Source: an uncultured Actinomycetes bacterium
GTDB taxonomy: Bacteria > Actinomycetota > Actinomycetes > Nanopelagicales > Nanopelagicaceae
Assembly (NCBI GenBank): GCA_903953805.1
Contig: CAJBLC010000052.1
Span: 1 to 62,392 of the forward strand
Direction of reading: 5' to 3'
Length of the DNA: 62,392 nt
Shown here: positions 4,804 to 42,747 of the stretch, piece by piece
How the letters are laid out: every line of letters begins with the position of its first letter
How positions within the stretch are numbered: position 1 is the stretch's first letter
Notes under the pieces: generated by a model
Database searches by the model: none
What the model was told of the DNA's origin: nothing
The model's input: the letters and a program-made list of their open reading frames with translations, nothing else
Made by a program: the position numbers and the translations under genes

Positions 4804-6135
4804 CTAATTCTCTTCCGAAGCGATTGTCTCGAGTCTGGCGCTCATCGCTTGGCCATGTGCAGGTAAATCTTCTGCTTGCGCCAATGTGATGACATTCTGA
4901 GCGATATCGATAAATGCACTCTTGTCATACTCAATAAAGTTCAATCCACGTAAGAAACTCTGGACCGAGAGTCCGCTTGAGTGACAGGCGCAACCACCAG
5001 TAGGAAGGACGTGATTTGAGCCCGCGGAGTAATCCCCCAGCGAGACGGGAGCGAATCGACCAATAAAGACAGCACCAGCATTTCTAATCCGATGAGAAAG
5101 TGCTTGTGCATTCTCGAAGATCAACTCTAAATGTTCGGCGGCATAAGCGTTGACGACATCAAAGCCTTGATCGAGCGAGTCGACTAATACAAGTGCAGAT
5201 TGAATGCCGCTGAGTGCAATCTCAATACGCTCACGGTGCTTGGTGAGAGCGACTCTCTTTTCGAGTTCAGCGCGAACAGCAGCGATGAGTTTTTCAGAAG
5301 GAGTAACGAGTACCGCGGCAGCAATCGTGTCATGTTCTGCTTGGCTAATAAGGTCAGCTGCGACTTCACTTGCTATCGCAGATTCATCGGCGAGAATAGC
5401 GATCTCCGTTGGACCCGCCTCTGAGTCGATTCCGATAACTCCTCGAAGTGCTCGCTTTGCTGCTGCTACATAAATATTCCCGGGTCCAGTGACCATATCG
5501 ACGCGCTCACAGACGCCTTCAACTCCGTATGCGAACATGGCGACAGCTTGAGCGCCACCAATGGCATAGACCTCATCGATTCCCAATAAGGCACATGTCG
5601 CCAGAATCGTTGGGTGCGGGTATCCGCCATTCTCTTTTTGTGGTGGGGAGGCAACTGCAATACTGCCGACCTTTGCGATCTGCGCAGGAACAACATTCAT
5701 GATGACCGAACTTGGATAGACCGCTCGCCCACCTGGGACATAAAGTCCTACGCGATCGACAGGGATCCACCGTTGTTCAACTCTTCCGCCATCCACGACC
5801 TGTGTCGCCACCGATGCACGGGTTTGATCGCTATGAACTTTCTGAATTCGACGAATTGCTTCTTCAAGAGAGCTGCGAATGTCAGGTGCAAGCGTCGCTA
5901 AGGATTCCGAGATGACGTGGGCTGGGACTCGAATCTGCGCTGGCTTTATGCCATCAAATTTTTCGCCCAGGGCAATCAGGTCAGATTCAGAGCCATTCTT
6001 TACCTGCGCCAAGATCGGTTCAATAGCGACCATGGCGGTCGCGATATCGAGCGTCGCCCGCGGGAGGCGCTTTTGGTATTCGCCTTTAGACAGGTGTTGG
6101 CCGCGGAGATCTAGGGTACGAATCTGCACGCTCAT
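4804..6135 (-). CDS. hisD: histidinol dehydrogenase
   Basis: 443 aa. Contains [11 protein letters not shown]...[11 protein letters not shown]...SQAEHD...[13 protein letters not shown]. Confidence 0.95.
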
Positions 6136-6197: not shown

Positions 6198-9100
6198 TCA
6201 GGCGAGGATGCAATCTGCGCCAAGAATCTGCTTGAGGTCAGCGGAGAGGCTCGGTGAAGCGGTCACTCGGAGGGCGTCATCAATCTTCATCACCATGCCA
6301 CCACGACCATCTTCAACTTTGAGATGGACTTCACGATTTCCAGGATGAGATCTCAAGATCTCTTTCATTCGCTCGACAATTGGCGCAGTGACTCGAGCTG
6401 AATCCATCGAGATGAGGACTGGTCCAGTCGGTGCAGCGCTGATGTCCGGCATCGACATATCCAGTGCGGTGATGCGGAGGTTCTCTTCGCGGCGGTCGAC
6501 CCGGCCTCGAATCACGACCACCTTATCTTCAACAAGATTCATGGCATGAGTTGTGTAGGTATTTGCAAAGAAGAGAACATCGGCAGAGCCTTCAAGATCT
6601 TCAATCGTGACGATCGCCCATGATTTACCTTGCTTGGAAACTTTTCGTTGTACTGAGGTGATGAGTCCACCGATCGAGACGATAGCCTCGTGACCAACTG
6701 AATCATCCGCAAGTGCCGAGATCGGCATATCAACCGCTGCGCGCAAGATATGTTCAACACCAAAGAGCGGATGGTCTGAAACATAGAGACCTAACATCTC
6801 GCGTTCGTAACTGAGAAGAAGAGATTTCTCCCATTCCTCTGAGGGGATATCGACCTCAACGCTTGAGACTGTAGAACCACTATCTGGAGTAGATCCAAAG
6901 AGATCGTATTGACCCAATGATTCTGCTCGCTTGCTCTCCATGACTGAATCAATCGCACCTAAGTAGATCATCATCAGACCACGGCGGCTATGTCCGAGCG
7001 AGTCGAATGCTCCCGCTTTAATGAGCGATTCAATGGTCTTCTTATTGCAGACTTGTTGATCCACCTTCGCCAAGAAATCGCCGAAAGATGTGTAACGACC
7101 CTTCTCGTGGCGGGCGGCAACAATAGCTGCAGTAACGTTTTCACCGACATTGCGGATAGCGCTCAATCCAAAACGGATATCGCTCCCACGTGGTGTGTAA
7201 TCAGATTCTGATTCATTGACATCCGGAGGGAGAACCTTGATTCCCATGCGACGACACTCGCTGAGATAGAGCGCGCTCTTATCTTTGTCGTCCCGCACGC
7301 TGGTGAGAAGTGCCGACATGTACTCAGTAGGGAAATTAGCTTTGAGATAGGCGGTCCAAAATGAGACCACTCCATACCCTGCGCTATGTGCTCGGTTGAA
7401 GGCATAGTCCGCAAACGGGATTAACGTCTCCCATAACTTTGCGATCGCGCCCTTGGAGAAACCATTCTCAAACATGCCCGCCTCAAAATTTACAAACTCT
7501 TTATCCAGAATCTCTTTCTGCTTCTTACCCATCGCCTTACGAAGGAGATCCGCACGACCGAGAGAGAAGCCCGCAACCTTTTGAGCAATCGCCATAACCT
7601 GCTCTTGGTAGACGATCAGGCCGTAGGTATTACCTAAAATCTCAGCGAGCGGCTCCGATAGCTCGGGGTGGATAGGGACAACCGGCTTACGTTTATTCTT
7701 TCGATCTGCATAATCATTATGTGCATTAACGCCCATCGGTCCTGGACGATAAAGTGCAATCACCGCTGAGATATCTTCAAAGGAATCTGGCGCCATCTGT
7801 CTAAGGAGTGCTCGCATTGGGCCGCCATCAAGTTGGAATACTCCCAGGGTGTCTCCGCGACCTAGAAGTTCAAATGTCTTTGCATCTGCAAGCTCGAGAT
7901 CTTCGAGGCGAATATCAATATTTTGATTCGACTTAATGTTGAGAAGCGCTTCATCGAGCACCGAGAGATTTCGGAGACCCAAGAAATCCATCTTGAGTAA
8001 TCCGATCGCTTCGCAGGCTCCCATATCGAACTGAGTGATGATCGCACCGTCATTTTCACGGCGATGGATAGGAATAACATCGAGCAATGGGTACTTACTC
8101 AGGATAACGCCAGCAGCATGCACGCCAGATTGTCGCTTGAGTCCCTCTAGACCACGGGCTGTATCAACAATCTTCTTTGAATCAGGATCTGTCTCATAGA
8201 GTGTTCGGAATTCACCGGCTTCGCCGTATCGATCATCCTTTGGATTGAAGATGCCTGAGAGCGTTATATCTTTCCCCATCACTGTTGGTGGCAGCGCCTT
8301 TGTTAAACGCTCACCTAGTGCATAGGGATAGCCGAGAACTCGTGTTGAATCTTTAAGCGCCTGCTTCGACTTAATATTGGAGTACGTAATGATCTGCGCT
8401 ACTCGATCTTCACCATACTTCTCAGTCGCATAGGCAATCATCTCGGAGCGACGACGTTCATCGAAGTCGAGGTCGATATCTGGCATGGAGATACGTTCTG
8501 GATTGAGGAAGCGCTCAAAGAGCAGGCCATGGCGGATCGGATCTAGTTGAGTGATTCCTAGTGCATAGGAGACGAGCGAGCCGGCGGCGGAGCCACGACC
8601 TGGACCGACGCGGATTCCAACTTCACGGGCATGCTCACACAGATCTGCGACAACGAGGAAGTACCCCGGGAATCCCATCTTGATCATCGTATCCAGCTCG
8701 TAGTCGAGTCGCTCTTGATACTCAGCTGGAAGATCGCCTCCAAGGCGAACTCTCATACCCTCGTTAGCGAGTTTTCGTAGCCAAGAATCTTCGCTCTCGC
8801 CCTTGGGGACATCGAACTGCGGCAAGAGATTTTCATGGTCGCGCATCGTCGTATTGCAACGTTCAGCGATCAAAAGGGTGTTGTCGCAAGCACCTTCGAG
8901 CTCTGCAAATTTCTCGCGCATCTGCGCAGGGGTCTTGAGATAGAACTCGTCATTATCAAATTTAAATCGCTTCGGATCGGCGATCGTTGAACCACTTTGC
9001 ACACAGAGCAGTGCTTCATGAGCGCCAGCATCCTCATGCTTTGTATAGTGAAGATCATTTGTCGCTAACAGCGGAAGCCCAAGATCCTTACCCAATTTGA

Positions 9101-9707
9101 GAAGTTCAGATTTCACTCTGCTCTCAATTTCAATTCCGTGATCCATTACTTCAAGGAAGAAATTCTCTTTTCCAAAGATATCTCGAAGTTCACTCGCTGC
9201 TGCACGAGCTTCTTTATATGCCCCCATCCGCAATCGAGTTTGAACTTCTCCTCCGGGACAACCCGTCGTTGCAATGATTCCCTTCGAATATTGCGCGAGC
9301 AGTTCACGATCCATGCGTGGCTTGTAGTAAAAACCTTCAAGGGATGCGAGCGAAGAAAGTCTAAAGAGATTTCCCAAACCCTCATTATTTTCAGCGAGCA
9401 AGGTCATATGTGTATATGCGCCGCCACCTGAGACATCATCTTCTCCACCATCGGCCCATTTCACGCGACTCTTGGTGAAGCGCGATTCGGGCGCAACATA
9501 AGCTTCGATGCCGATGATTGGCTTCACGCCCGCTTTTAAGGCCTGCTTATTAAATTCGTACGCACCAAAGACATTGCCATGATCGGTAATCGCTATAGCT
9601 GGCATCTCTAGCCGAGCCACCTCTTTTACGAGTTCGTCGACGCGCGCCGCACCATCGAGCATCGAGTACTCGGTGTGGACGTGAAGGTGGACGAAGCTAT
9701 CGGACAT
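6198..9707 (-). CDS. dnaE: DNA polymerase III alpha subunit (replicative)
   Basis: 1169 aa. PHP start FVHLHVHTEYSMLDGA and catalytic PDIDLDFDERRR. It is full length with an OB-fold/C-terminal region. Confidence 0.96.
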   Translation of the reverse strand: MSDSFVHLHVHTEYSMLDGAARVDELVKEVARLEMPAIAITDHGNVFGAYEFNKQALKAGVKPIIGIEAYVAPESRFTKSRVKWADGGEDDVSGGGAYTHMTLLAENNEGLGNLFRLSSLASLEGFYYKPRMDRELLAQYSKGIIATTGCPGGEVQTRLRMGAYKEARAAASELRDIFGKENFFLEVMDHGIEIESRVKSELLKLGKDLGLPLLATNDLHYTKHEDAGAHEALLCVQSGSTIADPKRFKFDNDEFYLKTPAQMREKFAELEGACDNTLLIAERCNTTMRDHENLLPQFDVPKGESEDSWLRKLANEGMRVRLGGDLPAEYQERLDYELDTMIKMGFPGYFLVVADLCEHAREVGIRVGPGRGSAAGSLVSYALGITQLDPIRHGLLFERFLNPERISMPDIDLDFDERRRSEMIAYATEKYGEDRVAQIITYSNIKSKQALKDSTRVLGYPYALGERLTKALPPTVMGKDITLSGIFNPKDDRYGEAGEFRTLYETDPDSKKIVDTARGLEGLKRQSGVHAAGVILSKYPLLDVIPIHRRENDGAIITQFDMGACEAIGLLKMDFLGLRNLSVLDEALLNIKSNQNIDIRLEDLELADAKTFELLGRGDTLGVFQLDGGPMRALLRQMAPDSFEDISAVIALYRPGPMGVNAHNDYADRKNKRKPVVPIHPELSEPLAEILGNTYGLIVYQEQVMAIAQKVAGFSLGRADLLRKAMGKKQKEILDKEFVNFEAGMFENGFSKGAIAKLWETLIPFADYAFNRAHSAGYGVVSFWTAYLKANFPTEYMSALLTSVRDDKDKSALYLSECRRMGIKVLPPDVNESESDYTPRGSDIRFGLSAIRNVGENVTAAIVAARHEKGRYTSFGDFLAKVDQQVCNKKTIESLIKAGAFDSLGHSRRGLMMIYLGAIDSVMESKRAESLGQYDLFGSTPDSGSTVSSVEVDIPSEEWEKSLLLSYEREMLGLYVSDHPLFGVEHILRAAVDMPISALADDSVGHEAIVSIGGLITSVQRKVSKQGKSWAIVTIEDLEGSADVLFFANTYTTHAMNLVEDKVVVIRGRVDRREENLRITALDMSMPDISAAPTGPVLISMDSARVTAPIVERMKEILRSHPGNREVHLKVEDGRGGMVMKIDDALRVTASPSLSADLKQILGADCILA

Positions 9708-35032: not shown

Positions 35033-35398
35033 CTACTGATTATTGCGGTCATCCCAGCGACGCTCGAGGCGATCGCTCCAACGTGGCGAGCGATTTTTTC
35101 CGGAAGAAGTTCCGGTGTTCTTGCCCATCATCTGGCGCAATGAGAAATTTGAGATAGCGGTAAATGCACCGCTGAGAGCGATAATGAAGCCGATAACACC
35201 AACCACAGTATTCTTTGCAACGAGGCCAGCGACGATAACTGCCAAGCCAGTAAGAACGGCGAAGAATCCCGCGAGAACACGTGAAGCCTGACGCGTACGG
35301 GCTTTACCGCTTAGCGCACCTACGAGACGTGGGTCATCCGCGGCAAGCGCCGCCTCCATCTCCGCTAAGAGCTTCTGTTCATGTTCTGAGAGTGCCAC
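35033..35398 (-). CDS. DUF3040-family small membrane protein
   Basis: 121 aa. MALSEHEQKLLAEMEAALAADDPRL followed by two TM helices is the typical actinobacterial DUF3040 architecture. Confidence 0.8.
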   Translation of the reverse strand: MALSEHEQKLLAEMEAALAADDPRLVGALSGKARTRQASRVLAGFFAVLTGLAVIVAGLVAKNTVVGVIGFIIALSGAFTAISNFSLRQMMGKNTGTSSGKNRSPRWSDRLERRWDDRNNQ

Positions 35399-35413: not shown

Positions 35414-36616
35414 CTAATCCTGGGATTCGTCAGCCTCAGTAGAGGAGACCAGGCGGGCAGGCCGAACGCTCCCTCTGCCAAAACGCTTTGTTGCCGCATC
35501 CATAGCCGCCGTCGCCTCCCGCCAGCCCTTTTCGCGCTCACCGAGGAGAAGTTGCTGGGGGGAACCGGTGCCATCACTGAGATTTTCGAGCGATACGCCG
35601 ACTAAGCGAATTCTCGCTCGATCTAATTTCAGCGCCTTGTAAAGATTCCGGACTACCTCGTAGCACTCTTGAACTCCACTGATCGGAAGTGGCACGGTCT
35701 TAGAGCGGCTGATGGTTGTGAAATCTGCAAATCTAATTTTTATCGCAATTGTTTTACTCACAAGTCCACGATCACGAAGTCGATGAGATGCCCGCTCCAC
35801 CATGCGAAGTAATTCGCGAAGGATCTCCTCGTGATTATCGAGATCGATCAGAAAGGTCTCTTCCGCACCAATACTTTTATCTGGTTCATCCGTTGTTACG
35901 CTTCGATAGTCGCGACCCCACGCCAACTCGTAGAGCGTCTCCCCTGCTGATTGACCGAGAGCGCGTATCAAAGTCGCACGCGGCGTCTGCGCAATATCAC
36001 CGATCTTGGTTAAGCCAATACGCTGAAGTTCTTCATTTGTCTTTGGCCCAACGCCCCACATCGCACTCACTGGTAGTGGGTGGAGAAATTCAAGAATACG
36101 ACTCTGCTCAATCTCCAACATTCCATTTGGCTTGGCATATGTTGATGCGAGCTTGGCAATAAATTTCGAAGGGGCGATTCCTACTGAGCAGGTGATCCCC
36201 TCTTCGCTCTCAACTCGTGCCCGAATCTTGGCGGCGATCACTCTTCCATCGCCATGCAACCTCTGACTTCCTGTGACATCGAGAAAGGCTTCATCAAGAG
36301 AGAGCGGCTCAACCAGCGGGGTAAAGGAGTGGAAGATCTCCATAATGTGGCGAGAGATTTCTGCATTTCGTTCCATATTGACCGGAACGAAGATTGCGTG
36401 CGGGGCTAATCGTCGCGCTTGTCCGAGGGGCATGGCAGAGCGCACACCAAATTTTCGCGCTTCATAATTTGCCGATGAGACAACTCCGCGTGCTCCCATG
36501 CCAACGACAACTGGCTTTCCTTTGAGTGTTGGGTCATCGCGTTCTGCAACCGATGCATAGAAGGCATCCATATCAACGTGGAGAATGGTGAGCCGCTTCT
36601 CATCTAACTCACTCAT
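35414..36616 (-). CDS. dinB: DNA polymerase IV (Y-family, catalytic residues intact)
   Basis: Contains LTILHVDMDAFYASV, SLDEAFLDVT, GIAPSKFIAKLAS and PVSAMWGVGPKT. The ATG at 36616 overlaps the dnaE2 stop by 8 nt. Confidence 0.9.
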   Translation of the reverse strand: MSELDEKRLTILHVDMDAFYASVAERDDPTLKGKPVVVGMGARGVVSSANYEARKFGVRSAMPLGQARRLAPHAIFVPVNMERNAEISRHIMEIFHSFTPLVEPLSLDEAFLDVTGSQRLHGDGRVIAAKIRARVESEEGITCSVGIAPSKFIAKLASTYAKPNGMLEIEQSRILEFLHPLPVSAMWGVGPKTNEELQRIGLTKIGDIAQTPRATLIRALGQSAGETLYELAWGRDYRSVTTDEPDKSIGAEETFLIDLDNHEEILRELLRMVERASHRLRDRGLVSKTIAIKIRFADFTTISRSKTVPLPISGVQECYEVVRNLYKALKLDRARIRLVGVSLENLSDGTGSPQQLLLGEREKGWREATAAMDAATKRFGRGSVRPARLVSSTEADESQD

Positions 36617-39600
36617 GGACTGCTCGCTCACGAGAGTTGAGATTACGCCACTTCTCATATGAGGAGCCGAGTTCCCACGCCTTTGTTGCGCGAATAGAGA
36701 GTCCGCGCGGCCCCGTTCTGCGCACCTCGCCCTTTACCAAAAAGAGTGATGAGCTATAGAGAAGAGCGGCGCAGCTATTTTGCACATCCTCGAAGAAGGT
36801 AATGTCACTACACCCGTAGCCATCATCGAGTGTTAAGAAGATGACTCTCCTGCCTGACCGGACTGGCGGTGTTTGCAGCGCAACCTTTACACCAGCAACA
36901 AGTACTGGGCTTCCTGCTCGTTGGTGGATGAGATCGGAAGATCTGATCGCCCCTACATGGTTGAGAAAATCGCCATAGAACTCGAGCATATGGCGGGAGA
37001 TATCCATTCCCGTAATATCAATCTCATGGCGCACTCGCTCAGCTGCAGTGAGATCTGGAAGCCCAGTTGATTCAAGTGGTGGCGGCGTTAATCCAAGAGT
37101 TAACTGACCGCTCCCGAGGTTACCCTTCTTCGATGCTGATAATTTATAGAGATCCTGCGCATGCAGCAAGAGGTCTCTTCTATTAAGAGCGCTCTTCTCT
37201 TCTGGTCCAATCTTATGAAGAGCATCAAATGCTCCAACCAGAATAAGAGCTTGCGTTGTTGGATATGCAGAGCCAGATCGTGCAACAAAATCAGCAAGAT
37301 CAAGATAAGGACGCGCACTGAGAATCGTCTCAATTTCGCCACTACTAATTCCCTGGATCTCGCTGAGTGCGATACGAATCGCATACCCTCGCGCATCTGG
37401 TAGCGAGAGTGAACTTCCGGTGCTGATTAAATCTGGTGCGACATAAGGGGCTCGTGCTCCATCATCAGAAGGCGAGATCTTCTCTACGCGATACGTTCGA
37501 TCTGAACGATTGATATCGATAGGAGCAATAACAATCCCCCATTGGCGAGCCTCATCAAGAATCAATCGCTTTGGATACATCCCCGGATCGTGGGTAAGCG
37601 CTCCAGCTATAAATGCCGCAGTGTGATGTGTCTTCAACCATGCCGATTGATAAGTAGGAAGTGCAAAAGCGGCTGCATGCGCCTTGCAGAATCCAAAGGA
37701 GGCGAAGGCTCGAAGAACATCCCAGACCTTATCGACAACCTTCATCTCGAAGCCTTGCGCAAGCGCTGCTGGGTAGAACCAATCGCAGACCGCTTGCTGA
37801 CTTTCAAGGGATCCCAACTGTCGACGGCGCTCATCTGAGTGCGCAAGTGAGGAGCCGGTCATGACCGAGATCAGGCGTATGACTTGCTCATGGAATACGA
37901 CAACTCCTTCAGTCTCTTCCAGAATTGGATCGAGCTGTGGATGGAGAAGGGTGCGACTTCGATGGCCATGTCGGGTATTAATAAAAGGGGTAATCATGTC
38001 GCTCTTCACTGGCCCAGGACGGAAGAGAGAGATATCAATGATGAGATCGGTAAATGTCGAGGGAGCAAACTTTCCGACAAGCTCACGCTGCCCCGGACTC
38101 TCTACTTGGAATATTCCTAAGGTCCGAGTCGATTTAATCAAATCAAAGGTCTTGTGATCATTGAGTGGAATAACATCGATATCGACACGCTTCTCTTCTA
38201 CTCTCTCTATTTCAGAGAGGGCATATGAGATAGCAGATTGCATCCGCACACCAAGAACATCGAGTTTGAGAAGGCCGATCGCCTCAACATCATCTTTATC
38301 GAAATAGACCATGGGATAGTTGCTTGAATTCCGAAGAGTCGGTGCGACATCGCCAAGTTTTGCATCCGAGAGGATGATGGCACAGGGGTGCATCGAGAGG
38401 TGGCGCGGTAATCCATCAATCCTTCCGGCAAGTTCAATCGCCATCTTCATGATTGGCGTATTGAGTTTGAGTCCTTTGAGCTCGGGAAGGTTCTCAAGTG
38501 CCTTACCGATGTTGCGAGCGCGAATATGCGGCAGAGATTTTGCAATCAGATCAATCTCCATCGGAGATATCCCCAAAGCTGCTCCGACATCACGAATAGC
38601 GTGACGTGCTCGGTAGGTATCGACCATTGCAACTGTTGCAGTTCTCTCCGGGCCATACCTCTCAAAGATTGCATCGTAGATTTCAAGGCGACGTGCGGAT
38701 TCAACATCGATATCAATATCTGGAAGTTCACCGCGAAGCGTTGAGCAGAACCGCTCCATAAGAAGTCCTTGGCTCATCGGCTCAACTCCAGAAATTCCTA
38801 AGAGATAACAGATGAGCGATCCGGCGCCGCTTCCTCGCGCTGCTACCCGAATTCCTCTATCCCGTGCCATATCCGTTATATCTGCAACGGTAAGAAAATA
38901 TGATTCAAATCCAAGGGTGCGAATAGTCGCTAACTCTTCTTCAAGTCGCATTGCTGCACCGACTGATTCAGCTGATGAGTAACGCCGCGAAAAGCCAGCT
39001 TCAGCACGATCGCGGAGCTGGATAGCCATCTCTGCATGGTTGCGGGCGCCCACTACTGATGCTTCTGGCAAGTGGACTCCCCCGATGCCGATATCGCGGC
39101 GTGGCGAGAGGATGCAGCGCTCTGCCAAATTGTGAGTTGCCGCAAGGAGGGTCTTGCCATCTCGTTCACCCGCCATGCGCGCAATCTCATCTGCGACATA
39201 ACGCATCTCTTCACCACTTTTGAGATATCCCTCGCTATTTGTTCGCTCGATATGGCTATGGTGAAGCGGAACAAGTAACCGGGCAGCATCAAGAACATCT
39301 GCGACCGGCCCATCTGTGCGATTGAGCATTCGCGCAGCATTTGTGAGTACCGCTGGTAATCCATGATCGCGAGCGAAGGCTAAAGCCTTTGCCGCATAGG
39401 GAGTAGAGAGCGGACCATCTCCCTTTGCCAAGTGAGATGTGCATTCAATAATTTGTTCAGCGAAGAGATCGCGCGTCGCGTTGTACATAGAGAGTGCAGC
39501 ATCGTGGCGACGCGCAGCGATGCTCTGTGCGAGTTGAGAGTCATAGCCATGCATGATGAAGAGCTGTGATGAATGTTCAGACTCTTGCTGAAGAATTTCA

Positions 39601-39923
39601 TAGGTAAGGAGGTTCTCATTATTGACCTTATTCATAGCGCTGACTAAGCGATAGAGCGCAGAGAGCTTCCCTGCTGGAGCAAGCAGCGTCACGCGGTACT
39701 TCTTCTGAATAAAGCTGAGATTGATACCGAGGATCGGATTCACTCCATACGCTTCACAACTTTGAGCAAAACGAATTGCACCAGCTAAACCATCTCGATC
39801 AGTAAGAGCGAGTGAGCTCATCCCAAGCTCTGCCGCTCGAGCAACGAGGGCATCGGGCTGTGCTGTTCCATATTTAAAGGAGTAGCCGCTTGAGAGGTGA
39901 AGGTGTGTAAACTCTTTAAACAT
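36609..39923 (-). CDS. dnaE2: error-prone DNA polymerase III alpha homologue DnaE2 (ImuC)
   Basis: 1104 aa and a second alpha-subunit paralogue in this window. PHP start HLHLSSGYSF..LTDRDGL and catalytic PDIDIDVESARR. It lies behind a LexA box. Confidence 0.88.
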   Translation of the reverse strand: MFKEFTHLHLSSGYSFKYGTAQPDALVARAAELGMSSLALTDRDGLAGAIRFAQSCEAYGVNPILGINLSFIQKKYRVTLLAPAGKLSALYRLVSAMNKVNNENLLTYEILQQESEHSSQLFIMHGYDSQLAQSIAARRHDAALSMYNATRDLFAEQIIECTSHLAKGDGPLSTPYAAKALAFARDHGLPAVLTNAARMLNRTDGPVADVLDAARLLVPLHHSHIERTNSEGYLKSGEEMRYVADEIARMAGERDGKTLLAATHNLAERCILSPRRDIGIGGVHLPEASVVGARNHAEMAIQLRDRAEAGFSRRYSSAESVGAAMRLEEELATIRTLGFESYFLTVADITDMARDRGIRVAARGSGAGSLICYLLGISGVEPMSQGLLMERFCSTLRGELPDIDIDVESARRLEIYDAIFERYGPERTATVAMVDTYRARHAIRDVGAALGISPMEIDLIAKSLPHIRARNIGKALENLPELKGLKLNTPIMKMAIELAGRIDGLPRHLSMHPCAIILSDAKLGDVAPTLRNSSNYPMVYFDKDDVEAIGLLKLDVLGVRMQSAISYALSEIERVEEKRVDIDVIPLNDHKTFDLIKSTRTLGIFQVESPGQRELVGKFAPSTFTDLIIDISLFRPGPVKSDMITPFINTRHGHRSRTLLHPQLDPILEETEGVVVFHEQVIRLISVMTGSSLAHSDERRRQLGSLESQQAVCDWFYPAALAQGFEMKVVDKVWDVLRAFASFGFCKAHAAAFALPTYQSAWLKTHHTAAFIAGALTHDPGMYPKRLILDEARQWGIVIAPIDINRSDRTYRVEKISPSDDGARAPYVAPDLISTGSSLSLPDARGYAIRIALSEIQGISSGEIETILSARPYLDLADFVARSGSAYPTTQALILVGAFDALHKIGPEEKSALNRRDLLLHAQDLYKLSASKKGNLGSGQLTLGLTPPPLESTGLPDLTAAERVRHEIDITGMDISRHMLEFYGDFLNHVGAIRSSDLIHQRAGSPVLVAGVKVALQTPPVRSGRRVIFLTLDDGYGCSDITFFEDVQNSCAALLYSSSLFLVKGEVRRTGPRGLSIRATKAWELGSSYEKWRNLNSRERAVHE

Positions 39924-39960: not shown

Positions 39961-40326
39961 CTATCGGGGCCGAGATGTTGGACGAATCTGCCAACTCCCA
40001 GTGAGTTCATCGAGTTCGAGTTCAAAGGTAGCGAGCGCACCAACTGGCGCCGCCTCTACCCGCCAGATAGCGCGCGCTCCATCATCGAAGATCGTCTGTT
40101 CTAAATGTCTTTGATCCAACGGCCTCTGGCGATAATTTCCATCATCGATCCGGTTCCACCATCCCCCTGATTCGCGCCATCTCGAGGCGATGGCATGGAT
40201 GTGGAAGCGACGACCTTGGTAGATAAATTCGACCGGCTCGCCCTCAGGGGCCAATACCGGAGGGACCCTGGGGCTAGATGGCTCGGAGCTCTCAGGGGTT
40301 GCTGGGTTCTTCGTTGATTCGAACAT
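39961..40326 (-). CDS. hypothetical 121-aa protein, first gene of the SOS-box-controlled dnaE2 operon
   Basis: It has a Pro/Ser/Glu-rich N-terminus followed by EFIYQGRRFHIHAIASRWRESGGWWNRIDDGNYR. It lies 37 nt upstream of dnaE2 on the same strand. Its ATG is inside the LexA palindrome. I did not recognise a family. Confidence 0.65.
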   Translation of the reverse strand: MFESTKNPATPESSEPSSPRVPPVLAPEGEPVEFIYQGRRFHIHAIASRWRESGGWWNRIDDGNYRQRPLDQRHLEQTIFDDGARAIWRVEAAPVGALATFELELDELTGSWQIRPTSRPR

Positions 40327-40335
40327 ATGTTCGAA
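40318..40335. promoter_or_regulatory. LexA operator (SOS box), perfect palindrome
   Basis: The sequence TTCGAACATATGTTCGAA contains the actinobacterial consensus TCGAAC-N4-GTTCGA with no mismatch. It overlaps the start codon at 40326. Confidence 0.85.
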
Positions 40336-40363
40336 AGATAGCCCTCGCCACTGACAGTGGCAA
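40335..40363 (-). promoter_or_regulatory. promoter of the dnaE2 operon: RecA-NDp-type motif TGTCAGTG-N8-TATCTT (also a TTGCCA-N17-TATCTT reading)
   Basis: On the minus strand: TTGCCA (40363-40358), TGTCAGTG (40356-40349), gcgagggc, TATCTT (40340-40335). The ATG follows 8 nt later with no Shine-Dalgarno, so the transcript is leaderless or near-leaderless. Confidence 0.65.
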
Positions 40364-40426: not shown

Positions 40427-41176
40427 ATGACTCTCATCGAGGCCCTTCTGGCAGGTGGCTTTATCGGCTCGGTCTTGGGCTTTGTCGGCGCTGGCGGCGC
40501 CATGGTCTCGGTCCCGATCCTGCTCTATATCTTCCACTTCACCAACGAGGCGGCCACGATCGCCGCCCTGGTCATCGTGGGCCTTGCCGCTGCATCAGGA
40601 GTACTCCCTAAATTCAAGAGTAAAGAGGTGCTCGTGCGCGAGGCGGTCTCGATCTGGGCGATCGGACTTGTAACCACTCTCTCTATGACTGTCCTTGCAA
40701 CTCATATCAATGTCAAAGTTCTTCACTCAGCTTTTGCACTCGTGCTTGTTATCGCTGGTGCATCCATGCTGCGCGGACCCTTTAAAGCAAATCCAGAACG
40801 ACGCATGCCGGTGCCGGTACTTATTCTCATCTCACTCATTATTGGAACACTCACAGGTCTCTTCGGAATCGGCGGTGGATTTCTCGCGATACCAGTACTT
40901 GTCCTCTTCTATAACACGCCACAGAATAAAGCCGCAGGGACTTCACTCCTGATAATTGCGATGAATTGCACAACATCATTTCTTGAACGTTATAAGAGCT
41001 GGCATATCGTTGAGTGGAAGACTCCCTTTACGATCGCTCTCGTCGCCATCGTCGTCTCGCGCATTGCATCACAGAAAAGTGGAAAGGCGAATGCCAAGCT
41101 ACTCAAGAGCTCATTCGCTTATCTGCTCTTCAGCCTCTCGGCATTTACCTTGATCAAGACCTTTCTCTTAGCCTAA
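40427..41176 (+). CDS. TauE/SafE-family (sulfite/anion exporter-like) membrane protein
   Basis: 249 aa, about 8 TM helices, with repeated G-x-x-G-G-G motifs (VGAGGAMVSVPIL, FGIGGGFLAIPVL). Confidence 0.8.
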   Translation: MTLIEALLAGGFIGSVLGFVGAGGAMVSVPILLYIFHFTNEAATIAALVIVGLAAASGVLPKFKSKEVLVREAVSIWAIGLVTTLSMTVLATHINVKVLHSAFALVLVIAGASMLRGPFKANPERRMPVPVLILISLIIGTLTGLFGIGGGFLAIPVLVLFYNTPQNKAAGTSLLIIAMNCTTSFLERYKSWHIVEWKTPFTIALVAIVVSRIASQKSGKANAKLLKSSFAYLLFSLSAFTLIKTFLLA

Positions 41177-42121
41177 TTACTCTCCCGATCTTCGGTACCA
41201 ATTTCGCCAGATGAGTCGGTGAACTGGAATCCAATAAGGAATTCGTGAAATCACCGGAAGTACTGGCAACAGTAGAAGACCCAGACTTAGTACCCCCATC
41301 AATGACATCACCAGAATGTCGGCATTGCCCGAAGATTTGAATGGTTCGATCTGATACCACAGTGAGTAAAGCCAGAGCCATGACTGCCCCGGCCAGGATC
41401 CCGTCTCATTCATGACGCCCCATTGGTCTCCACTCAGATGTTGAGCAGCTGCTTTATCTGGGAAGTAACTTCCGCTATCGGCGAGAAAGAGAAGTGGTTT
41501 CGTAAAGTTGGTTGGCAACGTCGAGTCGCTTGTGGTGAGAGCGCCATCAAGGGCTCCTGTACTCGCCATCCCATAAAGTGAGGTGACGAGCGTCGGAACT
41601 GGTCCATATTTTCCGCTTGGATCTTTGAGCGAGAGCGATTTTCCATCTTTAGTGAGCGCATCAGAATAGGCGCTCGCCCATTTAGCCTGTACTTGTGCAG
41701 ATGCTGAGATCCACATCGATACCGCAGATTGGATCTTTGAATCACTCTGTGACTTCAGTGGTTCAATGACAAAGCTTTGTGCAGGATCGATTGGAATCCG
41801 AACGCCTGCAGCCTTAGAGAGATTGATGGGTCCAATATTCTGGCCTTCACCATTTTTGTTATAGGGCGGTCCATAACTTGCGCTCGTTGTCGTCCCAGCA
41901 AGTTCACCTGCAGTTGTCTGCACAAAATCTGCTGGTGCGGCTTTTGCCCACGACTGCATAGTGAGCGCCTTCTCATCAGGAGAGCTAAATACCGCAGCGA
42001 GAGTGAGTGCCAGAAATCCCACAACGACTACAGCGATGACAAACTCTTTAATCAAGTCATACTCGCGAACTGGACCATTCCACTTCTTTGAAGGGTCAAT
42101 TGTTGAAAGTTTACGACTCAC
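41177..42121 (-). CDS. membrane protein resembling a cytochrome b C-terminal / subunit IV module with a ~230-aa extracytoplasmic insertion
   Basis: 314 aa. The GTG start lies directly after the cytochrome b stop, with GGAGG upstream. An N-terminal TM helix follows NGPVREYDLIKEF. A long Ser/Thr/Ala/Gly-rich domain comes next, then WLWLYSLWYQIEPFKSSGNADILVMSLMGVLSLGLLLLPVLP. It has no Cys, so no heme c site. Confidence 0.55.
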   Translation of the reverse strand: MSRKLSTIDPSKKWNGPVREYDLIKEFVIAVVVVGFLALTLAAVFSSPDEKALTMQSWAKAAPADFVQTTAGELAGTTTSASYGPPYNKNGEGQNIGPINLSKAAGVRIPIDPAQSFVIEPLKSQSDSKIQSAVSMWISASAQVQAKWASAYSDALTKDGKSLSLKDPSGKYGPVPTLVTSLYGMASTGALDGALTTSDSTLPTNFTKPLLFLADSGSYFPDKAAAQHLSGDQWGVMNETGSWPGQSWLWLYSLWYQIEPFKSSGNADILVMSLMGVLSLGLLLLPVLPVISRIPYWIPVHRLIWRNWYRRSGE

Positions 42122-42123
42122 TT

Positions 42124-42747
42124 TTACTTACCTCCCTCTTCAATAGGAGGGACGACGCCTTTGCGACGCACCAATATGACATGCCAGACAACAATAAATC
42201 CGAGAGTGAGCGGTAGAAGAGAGACATGAAGGAGAATCGCCTGTCCGGTATTCAAGGTATTAAAGAATGCTCCAATGCCCATCGCGTTAAATCCATCTTT
42301 AGCCTGCGTGGCAATCCATTGCGAATCAAAATTAGTCTGGATGATGTAACCGGTAAAGCCAGTAATTATTGAGGCGAAGAAAGCGAGGCAGCCAGTCACC
42401 CACGTTGCTAGGCGCCGGCCGCGCCAAGCCGCCATCCAGAACTTCCCCCAGAGGTGCACCACCATGAAGACGAAGAAGAGTTCAACGCTCCACAAGTGAA
42501 CAGAGTTCACATAATGCCCCACCTTTGAAGAATGCCACCAAGCCGGTCCTTCTAAAGTGAGATAGAGGCCGGATGCAATCAACATGACAAAGGCCGCGAG
42601 CGTGGCAACTCCAAAGATGTAGATCCACGAGGCGACATATGCTGGTTGGTGATCAGGAAGGAGATCTTCAGGTTCAAACTTTTCGATCGTTGCCATCCGC
42701 ACTCGACTTGTCCACGATCGTTGTGGGGTCACCTTTTGAGTGCTCAT
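42124..42747 (-). CDS. cytochrome b (N-terminal, di-heme four-helix domain; b6-like)
   Basis: 207 aa. SVHLWSVELFFVFMVVHLWG gives His-x13-His, and LLHVSLLPLTLGFIVVWHV gives His-x14-His. It also has a WVTG...FTGY motif. Confidence 0.85.
   Translation of the reverse strand: MSTQKVTPQRSWTSRVRMATIEKFEPEDLLPDHQPAYVASWIYIFGVATLAAFVMLIASGLYLTLEGPAWWHSSKVGHYVNSVHLWSVELFFVFMVVHLWGKFWMAAWRGRRLATWVTGCLAFFASIITGFTGYIIQTNFDSQWIATQAKDGFNAMGIGAFFNTLNTGQAILLHVSLLPLTLGFIVVWHVILVRRKGVVPPIEEGGK

Follow-up and report, generated by a model that had tools for sequence, protein, structure and literature searches.

A translesion-polymerase operon in a Candidatus Nanopelagicaceae (acI) genome is headed by a compact module in which a promoter with a PafBC-type motif runs directly into a LexA-type operator, and the operator in turn encloses the start codon of the first gene. 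On balance, the module is probably a damage-inducible promoter/operator that places the DUF6504, DnaE2-like and DinB genes under combined LexA and PafBC-type control and gives rise to a leaderless mRNA. It lies in a stretch of 62,392 nucleotides, analysed here in full and referred to as the window, which otherwise carries housekeeping functions such as the dcw cell-division cluster, his genes and carotenoid genes. The acI/Nanopelagicales are among the most abundant freshwater bacteria and have genomes of about 1.3–1.4 Mb. The features on which the argument turns are as follows, with coordinates given for the window.

40358–40363, minus strand: −35-like hexamer TTGCCA, found by promoter scan 17 nt 5′ of TATCTT
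40351–40356, minus strand: TGTCAG, the PafBC-type '−26 element' (5′ part of the RecA-NDp motif), in an exact match to TGTCRG-N10-TANNNT
40335–40340, minus strand: −10 hexamer TATCTT, which fits TAnnnT and is invariant in 80/80 loci
40319–40334, no strand assigned: LexA-type SOS box TCGAACATATGTTCGA, with zero mismatches to TCGAAC(N4)GTTCGA
40326–40328, minus strand: predicted transcription start, at A 40328 (2 nt before the ATG) or at A 40326 (the ATG itself)
40324–40326, minus strand: ATG at the operator dyad centre, in frame with the conserved domain in 80/81 loci
39961–40326, minus strand: DUF6504 gene, the first of the operon (121 aa; Pfam PF20114, E = 4e-8)
36609–39923, minus strand: gene for a DnaE2-like error-prone Pol III alpha paralogue (1104 aa)
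35414–36658, minus strand: gene for DinB / DNA polymerase IV (414-aa ORF)
35033–35398, minus strand: DUF3040 / SCO2097-family gene, with Pfam and NCBIfam matches, 15 nt 3′ of dinB

The operator and its conservation

Read along the minus strand, the module has the order cTTGCCA-c-TGTCAGTG-gcgagggc-TATCTT-TCGAACAT-ATG-TTCGAA. The SOS box is the core of a perfect 18-bp palindrome, TTCGAACATATGTTCGAA (40318–40335), and all sequence statements of the initial annotation hold. The final T of the −10 hexamer is the first base of this palindrome; the box itself adjoins the −10 with a gap of 0, holds the start codon and has the DnaE2-like and DinB genes behind it. It is the sole match to TCGAAC-N4-GTTCGA at 0 or 1 mismatch in the 62 kb window, and 100 dinucleotide-preserving shuffles of the window yielded 0 exact matches to the consensus, which was defined experimentally in M. 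tuberculosis (PMC3381160). The early reading of the palindrome as a LexA operator is borne out by this exact match, by its invariance (80/80) and by its place ahead of typical SOS genes (dnaE2-like and dinB), and as far as sequence can tell, we hold with high confidence that the palindrome acts as such an operator. In 737 kb of related DNA there were no further SOS boxes at ≤1 mismatch and one isolated match to the PafBC-type motif, and no regulon could therefore be shown.

A one-genome-per-species scan returned 342 relatives, and the best 80, all of them MAGs or single-cell genomes of acI/Nanopelagicales and one with a 100% identical protein, were taken for locus comparison and stacked gap-free on the ATG. 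The composite is present with identical spacing in all 80 loci, which places it far beyond chance, and the 22 bases TATCTTTCGAACATATGTTCGA (−14 to +7) are invariant in 80/80 even though protein identity drops to 55%. The SOS box is likewise identical at all 80 orthologous promoters (the best 80 of 342 relatives). These loci are not one clone counted repeatedly, since 65 distinct spacer sequences occur among them; 5′ of −38 conservation falls to ∼0.1 bit per position, and coding DNA past codon 3 varies freely. In a metagenomic variant (L185) the N4 spacer alone is altered (GTAT) while both arms and the ATG are intact, the pattern that dimer binding to an operator would predict. The feature is real, under strong constraint and almost certainly functional.

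Two of the related loci carry the module twice. In both, L021 and L026, the DUF6504 gene and dnaE2 are separated by an inserted AbiEi/AbiEii pair, and a second full module, CTTGCC-tc-TGTCTG-N10-TATCTT-TCGAACATATGTTCGA, stands directly 5′ of dnaE2 together with ∼80 nt of the DUF6504 5′ end. A second copy ahead of dnaE2 makes sense if dnaE2 depends on the module as its promoter, and it suggests a portable promoter unit. The insertion itself, a type IV toxin–antitoxin pair, spans 5442–6990 in L021 and is also found in L026.

Similar fusions extend beyond the acI. A scan of JGI metagenomes for TGTCRG-N10-TAnnnT followed within 0–10 nt by an SOS box, with the acI N4 spacer excluded, gave at least 120 matches, and among the matches listed all contigs have 55–76% G+C save one acI variant (L185). 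DUF6504 homologues stand behind the fused promoter in 34/120 of the matches listed; among the same matches it also precedes ruvC, DUF222-HNH (13E12-like), DUF5131 and DUF3072 genes, a HEPN_SAV_6107 gene followed by dnaE2, and an imuA′–imuB-like pair. The distance between box and −10 varies among the matches listed, from 1 nt after the −10 ahead of ruvC to 6 nt ahead of an Rv2719c-like gene followed by nrdR and 8–10 nt in the high-GC DUF6504 promoters, whose start codon, again among the matches listed, usually lies 20–300 nt downstream. What sets the acI module apart from these high-GC promoters is that its operator adjoins the −10 without a gap, its −35 is canonically spaced and its start codon sits at the dyad. 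Judging from this distribution, the fused design is old and common in Actinobacteria. As a separate observation on the matches listed, high-GC fused promoters (L081–L200) often have TTGAC 19–20 nt from the −10, and a TTGnn hexamer lies 17–20 nt from the −10 in 29/33 DUF6504-linked cases.

The start codon and the operon behind it

The ATG of the 121-aa ORF had been placed at the centre of the palindrome, 8 nt from the −10 and without a Shine–Dalgarno sequence, and each of these points was confirmed. With just 8 nt between the end of the −10 and the ATG, a Shine–Dalgarno sequence in the transcript is excluded; the nearest GAGG, at −19, falls within the promoter spacer, and there is no other. Comparison of the loci supports the boxed ATG as the true start: in each locus that can be read (80/81 with the window counted, the unreadable one being L067, which has an assembly gap) an open, in-frame linker of 39–74 aa connects it to the conserved SGGWW/WRVEA domain, and in 32 loci it is the only option, with no in-frame ATG, GTG or TTG before the conserved block. 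If the mycobacterial PafBC geometry applies, in which the −26 element lies at −28..−23 (PMC8635444), +1 would be A 40328 and the transcript would begin 5′-AUAUG, while a +1 at 40326 would require an 8-nt gap behind the −10. Position 40328 is A in all 80 loci and G in L185. Leaderless or near-leaderless translation from the boxed ATG is accordingly a prediction that we regard as well supported.

The DUF6504 protein has 172 detectable homologues, and in all of them the N-terminus is MFE or MFD. These residues are encoded by ATG TTC GA, which lies inside the operator, and the first three residues are therefore dictated by an operator half-site. An AlphaFold model suggests an all-beta domain (mean pLDDT 66.6), a fold search of this model against the PDB returned no match with E ≤ 0.001, and a literature search on DUF6504 found nothing relevant. 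It was also considered whether the protein might be a free-standing ImuB C-terminal domain, and this was rejected on a motif-level resemblance that was not significant. A DUF6504 gene is a recurrent first gene of actinobacterial DnaE2 operons (39961–40326 of the window, minus strand, and L124, L166 and L185), sometimes with a HEPN_SAV_6107 gene, and DUF6504 may be an unrecognised DnaE2 partner. The linker region of the protein seems prone to repeat expansion: L067 (about 5010–5200) has a repeated DQQVP-coding unit along with the assembly gap in the N-terminal linker of DUF6504. Short tandem repeats of GGGGAATCA were also seen 5′ of the module in L007 (about 4925–4965).

The DnaE2-like gene begins 37 nt 3′ of the DUF6504 gene, and its product has PHP, DNA_pol3_alpha, finger, HHH_6 and OB domains in Pfam; the top NCBIfam match is 'error-prone DNA polymerase', at a score under the cut-off of that model. 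A 1169-aa ORF at 6198–9707 is likely DnaE1, and its equal-length counterpart in related contigs (L201–L203) carries the full Pol III alpha domain set. The Y-family protein matches NCBIfam PRK03858 at 389.9 bits (cut-off 367) and carries the catalytic motifs DMDAFY and SLDE, which marks it as an active-type DinB and not an inactive ImuB; the real start of dinB is probably a few codons inside the 414-aa ORF. An ImuA′–ImuB–DnaE2 mutasome cassette was rejected on these grounds, the Y-family gene scoring as Pol IV with its catalytic motifs present, and no ImuA-like gene occurs in the DUF6504/DnaE2/DinB operon of the window. The DUF3040 gene is possibly the last of the operon, its co-transcription being suggested by the 15-nt gap alone. 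Elsewhere in the window (41177–42747, minus strand) the gene for a short, 207-aa cytochrome b-like membrane protein is directly followed by one for a 314-aa protein that matches nothing in Pfam or NCBIfam, and these two genes are apparently co-transcribed.

Promoter elements and competing readings

The mechanism that we favor can be set out as follows. A housekeeping-sigma promoter (TTGCCA, 17 nt, TATCTT) would abut a perfect LexA operator covering about −6 to +10 of the transcript, with the ATG at the dyad centre, such that in the undamaged cell a LexA dimer on the operator would block RNA polymerase. Upon damage, RecA-stimulated cleavage of LexA would free the promoter, and a PafBC-type WYL activator at TGTCAG, 10 nt 5′ of the −10, would raise initiation further. 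A start at A 40328 or A 40326 would leave an mRNA leader of 0–2 nt, and translation would proceed from the 5′-terminal AUG without a Shine–Dalgarno sequence. For ruvC of M. tuberculosis, induction is reported to be mostly independent of RecA although the SOS box is well placed (title of a paper cited in PMC3381160), which makes the relative weight of LexA and PafBC inputs unpredictable here.

The PafBC-type input is the less secure of the two. The segment TGTCAGTG-gcgagggc-TATCTT (40356–40335, minus strand) is the only exact RecA-NDp/PafBC match of the window, although ∼0.5 chance matches are expected per window and the motif by itself is unremarkable. Conservation gives it more weight. TGTC at −30..−27 is invariant in 80/80 loci, the next base is A or G in nearly all and then G in most, whereas the spacer positions near TGTC are variable (0.1–1.0 bit), and the distance from TGTCRG to the −10 is that of the ChIP-derived mycobacterial PafBC consensus tGTCgg(N10)tA(N3)T, in which PafB makes its base-specific contact with the GTC triplet (PMC8635444). 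The −35-like hexamer that had been noted 17 nt from the −10 is indeed present at 40363–40358, and cTTGC at −38..−34 is nearly invariant over the 80 loci (1.4–2.0 bits). Most loci have TTGCnn at the 17-nt distance. In the Nanopelagicus-like loci (L069, L076, L077, L079 and L080) the hexamer is TTGACC, displaced one base farther 5′ with an 18-nt spacer, and this shift is the behaviour of a genuine −35. Mycobacterial PafBC promoters are by definition hybrid −26/−10 promoters without a −35 hexamer (PMC8635444). The motif and the conserved GTC of that class are found here, then, together with a −35 hexamer that the class lacks, and of the proposed PafBC-type element the motif, its spacing and the invariance of TGTC stand while the conserved −35 runs against the mycobacterial definition.

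It is in this light that a simpler reading has to be weighed, in which an ordinary housekeeping-sigma promoter is de-repressed on LexA cleavage and the invariant TGTC is kept for some other spacer-binding factor or as an ancestral, unneeded PafBC site. Given the conserved −35 at canonical spacing, the promoter might work without PafBC; a hexamer that is conserved and moves by one base as a true −35 would, alongside mycobacterial PafBC promoters that have none (PMC8635444), is what such a reading predicts. It draws further support from the sequences analysed, the window and the 10 kb to its left among them, none of which yielded pafBC, and from Streptomyces venezuelae, in which the PafBC motif is reported not to be conserved though pafBC homologues exist (PMC9380542). 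However, an unused relic would be expected to have decayed, and TGTC is invariant in 80/80 loci amid a variable spacer at exactly the PafBC consensus distance from the −10. The same element also occurs in homologous high-GC promoters where TTGAC, 19–20 nt away from the −10, is too distant to be recognised unaided as a −35. Control by LexA alone is for these reasons a serious alternative, if an unlikely one. Combined LexA and PafBC-type control remains our preferred reading, with PafBC-type activation of the operon promoter predicted at moderate confidence; with LexA removed, the promoter is probably active by itself, and a PafBC-type factor would boost it further.

A different repressor, for instance of XRE or HTH type, might instead occupy the palindrome in a lineage that has lost LexA, its likeness to an SOS box being convergent or inherited. 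The searches for regulators are compatible with this: no lexA, recA or WYL/pafBC gene was found in the window (motif scan, and Pfam or NCBIfam on about 47 proteins), phmmer queries with E. coli LexA and RecA gave no lexA or recA among the ORFs of the 80 related loci, and there was no lexA, recA or pafBC within 10 kb beyond the left end of the window. LexA-independent damage regulators are also known elsewhere, such as DdiA in Myxococcus. Yet all 12 specified bases fit the actinobacterial LexA consensus, the target genes belong to the evolutionary core of the LexA regulon (PMC3381160), and the same box is found in homologous promoters of high-GC Actinobacteria that bear LexA, all of which makes a regulator other than LexA very improbable.

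Nucleic-acid hairpins (a terminator, an attenuator or an AUG-masking structure) as the reason for the inverted repeats can be dismissed almost outright: a scan did flag CCTTGCCACTGTCAGTGGCGAGG with its T-rich tail as terminator-like, but no gene ends on that strand and the neighbour is divergent, transcription from the predicted start would leave out the left half of the SOS box, the region has no Rfam match, and the 15-bp palindrome is complete in 1/65 distinct sequences with no pair meaningfully above shuffled controls. This last palindrome, GCCACTGACAGTGGC (40347–40361), is perfect around TGTCAG, as had been described. Its presence holds and its conservation does not, as all 7 pairs form in 1/65 distinct sequences and no covariation exceeds that of shuffled controls; it was rejected as a functional element, being specific to the window and devoid of covariation. 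The terminator-like call was rejected as well, the palindrome not being conserved and no gene ending there, and the only Rfam hit on the promoter region was a sub-threshold snoRNA match that amounts to noise.

The upstream neighbour offers little more. The divergent TauE gene does start at 40427, but its sharing of the region with the operon is incidental, as the neighbours vary between loci (a DoxX gene or others) and nothing is conserved 5′ of −38. A recurrent 14-bp palindrome, GTTGAACTTTCAAC within TTGGTTGAACTTTCAACTAATT, lies ahead of a divergent DoxX-family gene in L035 (about 4890–4912) and about 25 other loci, at −90..−110 from the DUF6504 ATG; it does not occur in the window and is probably the operator of some regulator.

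Comparison with known damage-inducible promoters

A literature search found nothing on SOS or LexA in Nanopelagicales, Planktophila or acI, and the module is the first sequence-level evidence that we found for tightly regulated, damage-inducible error-prone polymerases in acI/Nanopelagicales. It provides a compact test case for the combination of LexA repression and PafBC activation at a single promoter, for the coexistence of a −35 hexamer and a −26 element, and for the limits that an operator may set on a protein N-terminus (Met-Phe-Glu/Asp fixed by ATG TTC GA), and it flags DUF6504 as a putative damage-regulated DnaE2 partner worth study. Current concepts are left unchanged. A bolder proposal, that the genome-streamlined acI have united unaided −35 recognition by the housekeeping sigma factor, PafBC sigma adaptation and LexA repression in one 46-bp promoter with the leaderless start codon as its operator dyad, and that DUF6504 is an accessory subunit which takes the place of ImuA′/ImuB in a DnaE2–DinB mutasome, is doubtful and on the whole improbable.

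The novelty implied at first was overstated, since there are published accounts from mycobacteria of mutasome control by both LexA and PafBC and of SOS boxes that lie over transcription starts and start codons. The individual features have all been described before, and the acI module is an unusually compact case of a known actinobacterial DNA-damage promoter class. LexA and PafBC jointly control imuA′/imuB, dnaE2 and recA in mycobacteria (PMC8682763; reviewed in PMC8223512). In M. tuberculosis, as in acI, error-prone polymerase genes (Rv3395c-imuB and dnaE2) have a consensus SOS box, and the transcription start of Rv3395c (imuA′) lies inside its box, 7 nt before the start codon (PMC3381160). 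The PafBC site of Rv3395c, however, belongs to a separate promoter 166 nt 5′ of the LexA site (PMC8682763), whereas in acI both sites share one promoter within 46 bp, and the mycobacterial mutasome pairs ImuA′ with ImuB where the acI operon has DUF6504 and an active DinB.

Closer parallels exist for single aspects of the layout. In the leaderless genes Rv1378c and Rv2100 transcription and, most likely, translation begin inside the LexA box (PMC3381160), but these genes are of the 13E12 family or of unknown type and their promoters have no −26 element described, and in acI the start codon falls exactly on the dyad centre and is fixed across the whole order. RecA-NDp motifs and SOS boxes share a single regulatory region in ruvC and Rv2719c of M. 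tuberculosis (PMC3381160), which differ in having leaders and an induction that is mostly RecA-independent, while in acI the operator directly adjoins the −10 and matches the consensus perfectly, and a −35 is conserved as well. Leaderless mRNA likewise has a precedent in the lexA transcript of M. tuberculosis (PMC2897130).

With respect to the promoter proper, the acI module resembles the 'sigma adaptation' promoters of PafBC in M. smegmatis, tGTCgg(N10)tA(N3)T, in its conserved GTC and canonical −10 (PMC8635444), but those have no −35 consensus and acI has TTGCnn or TTGACC at 17–18 nt. With respect to gene content, the nearest counterpart is the S. venezuelae dnaE2-dinP operon, which like the acI operon has a Pol IV gene behind its DnaE2 gene, and which is strongly induced by mitomycin C with LexA bound at its SOS boxes (PMC9380542). 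The boxes of S. venezuelae lie ∼68 nt 5′ of the annotated start and the PafBC motif is reported there as not conserved (PMC9380542), in contrast to the acI arrangement of operator, −26 element and start codon.
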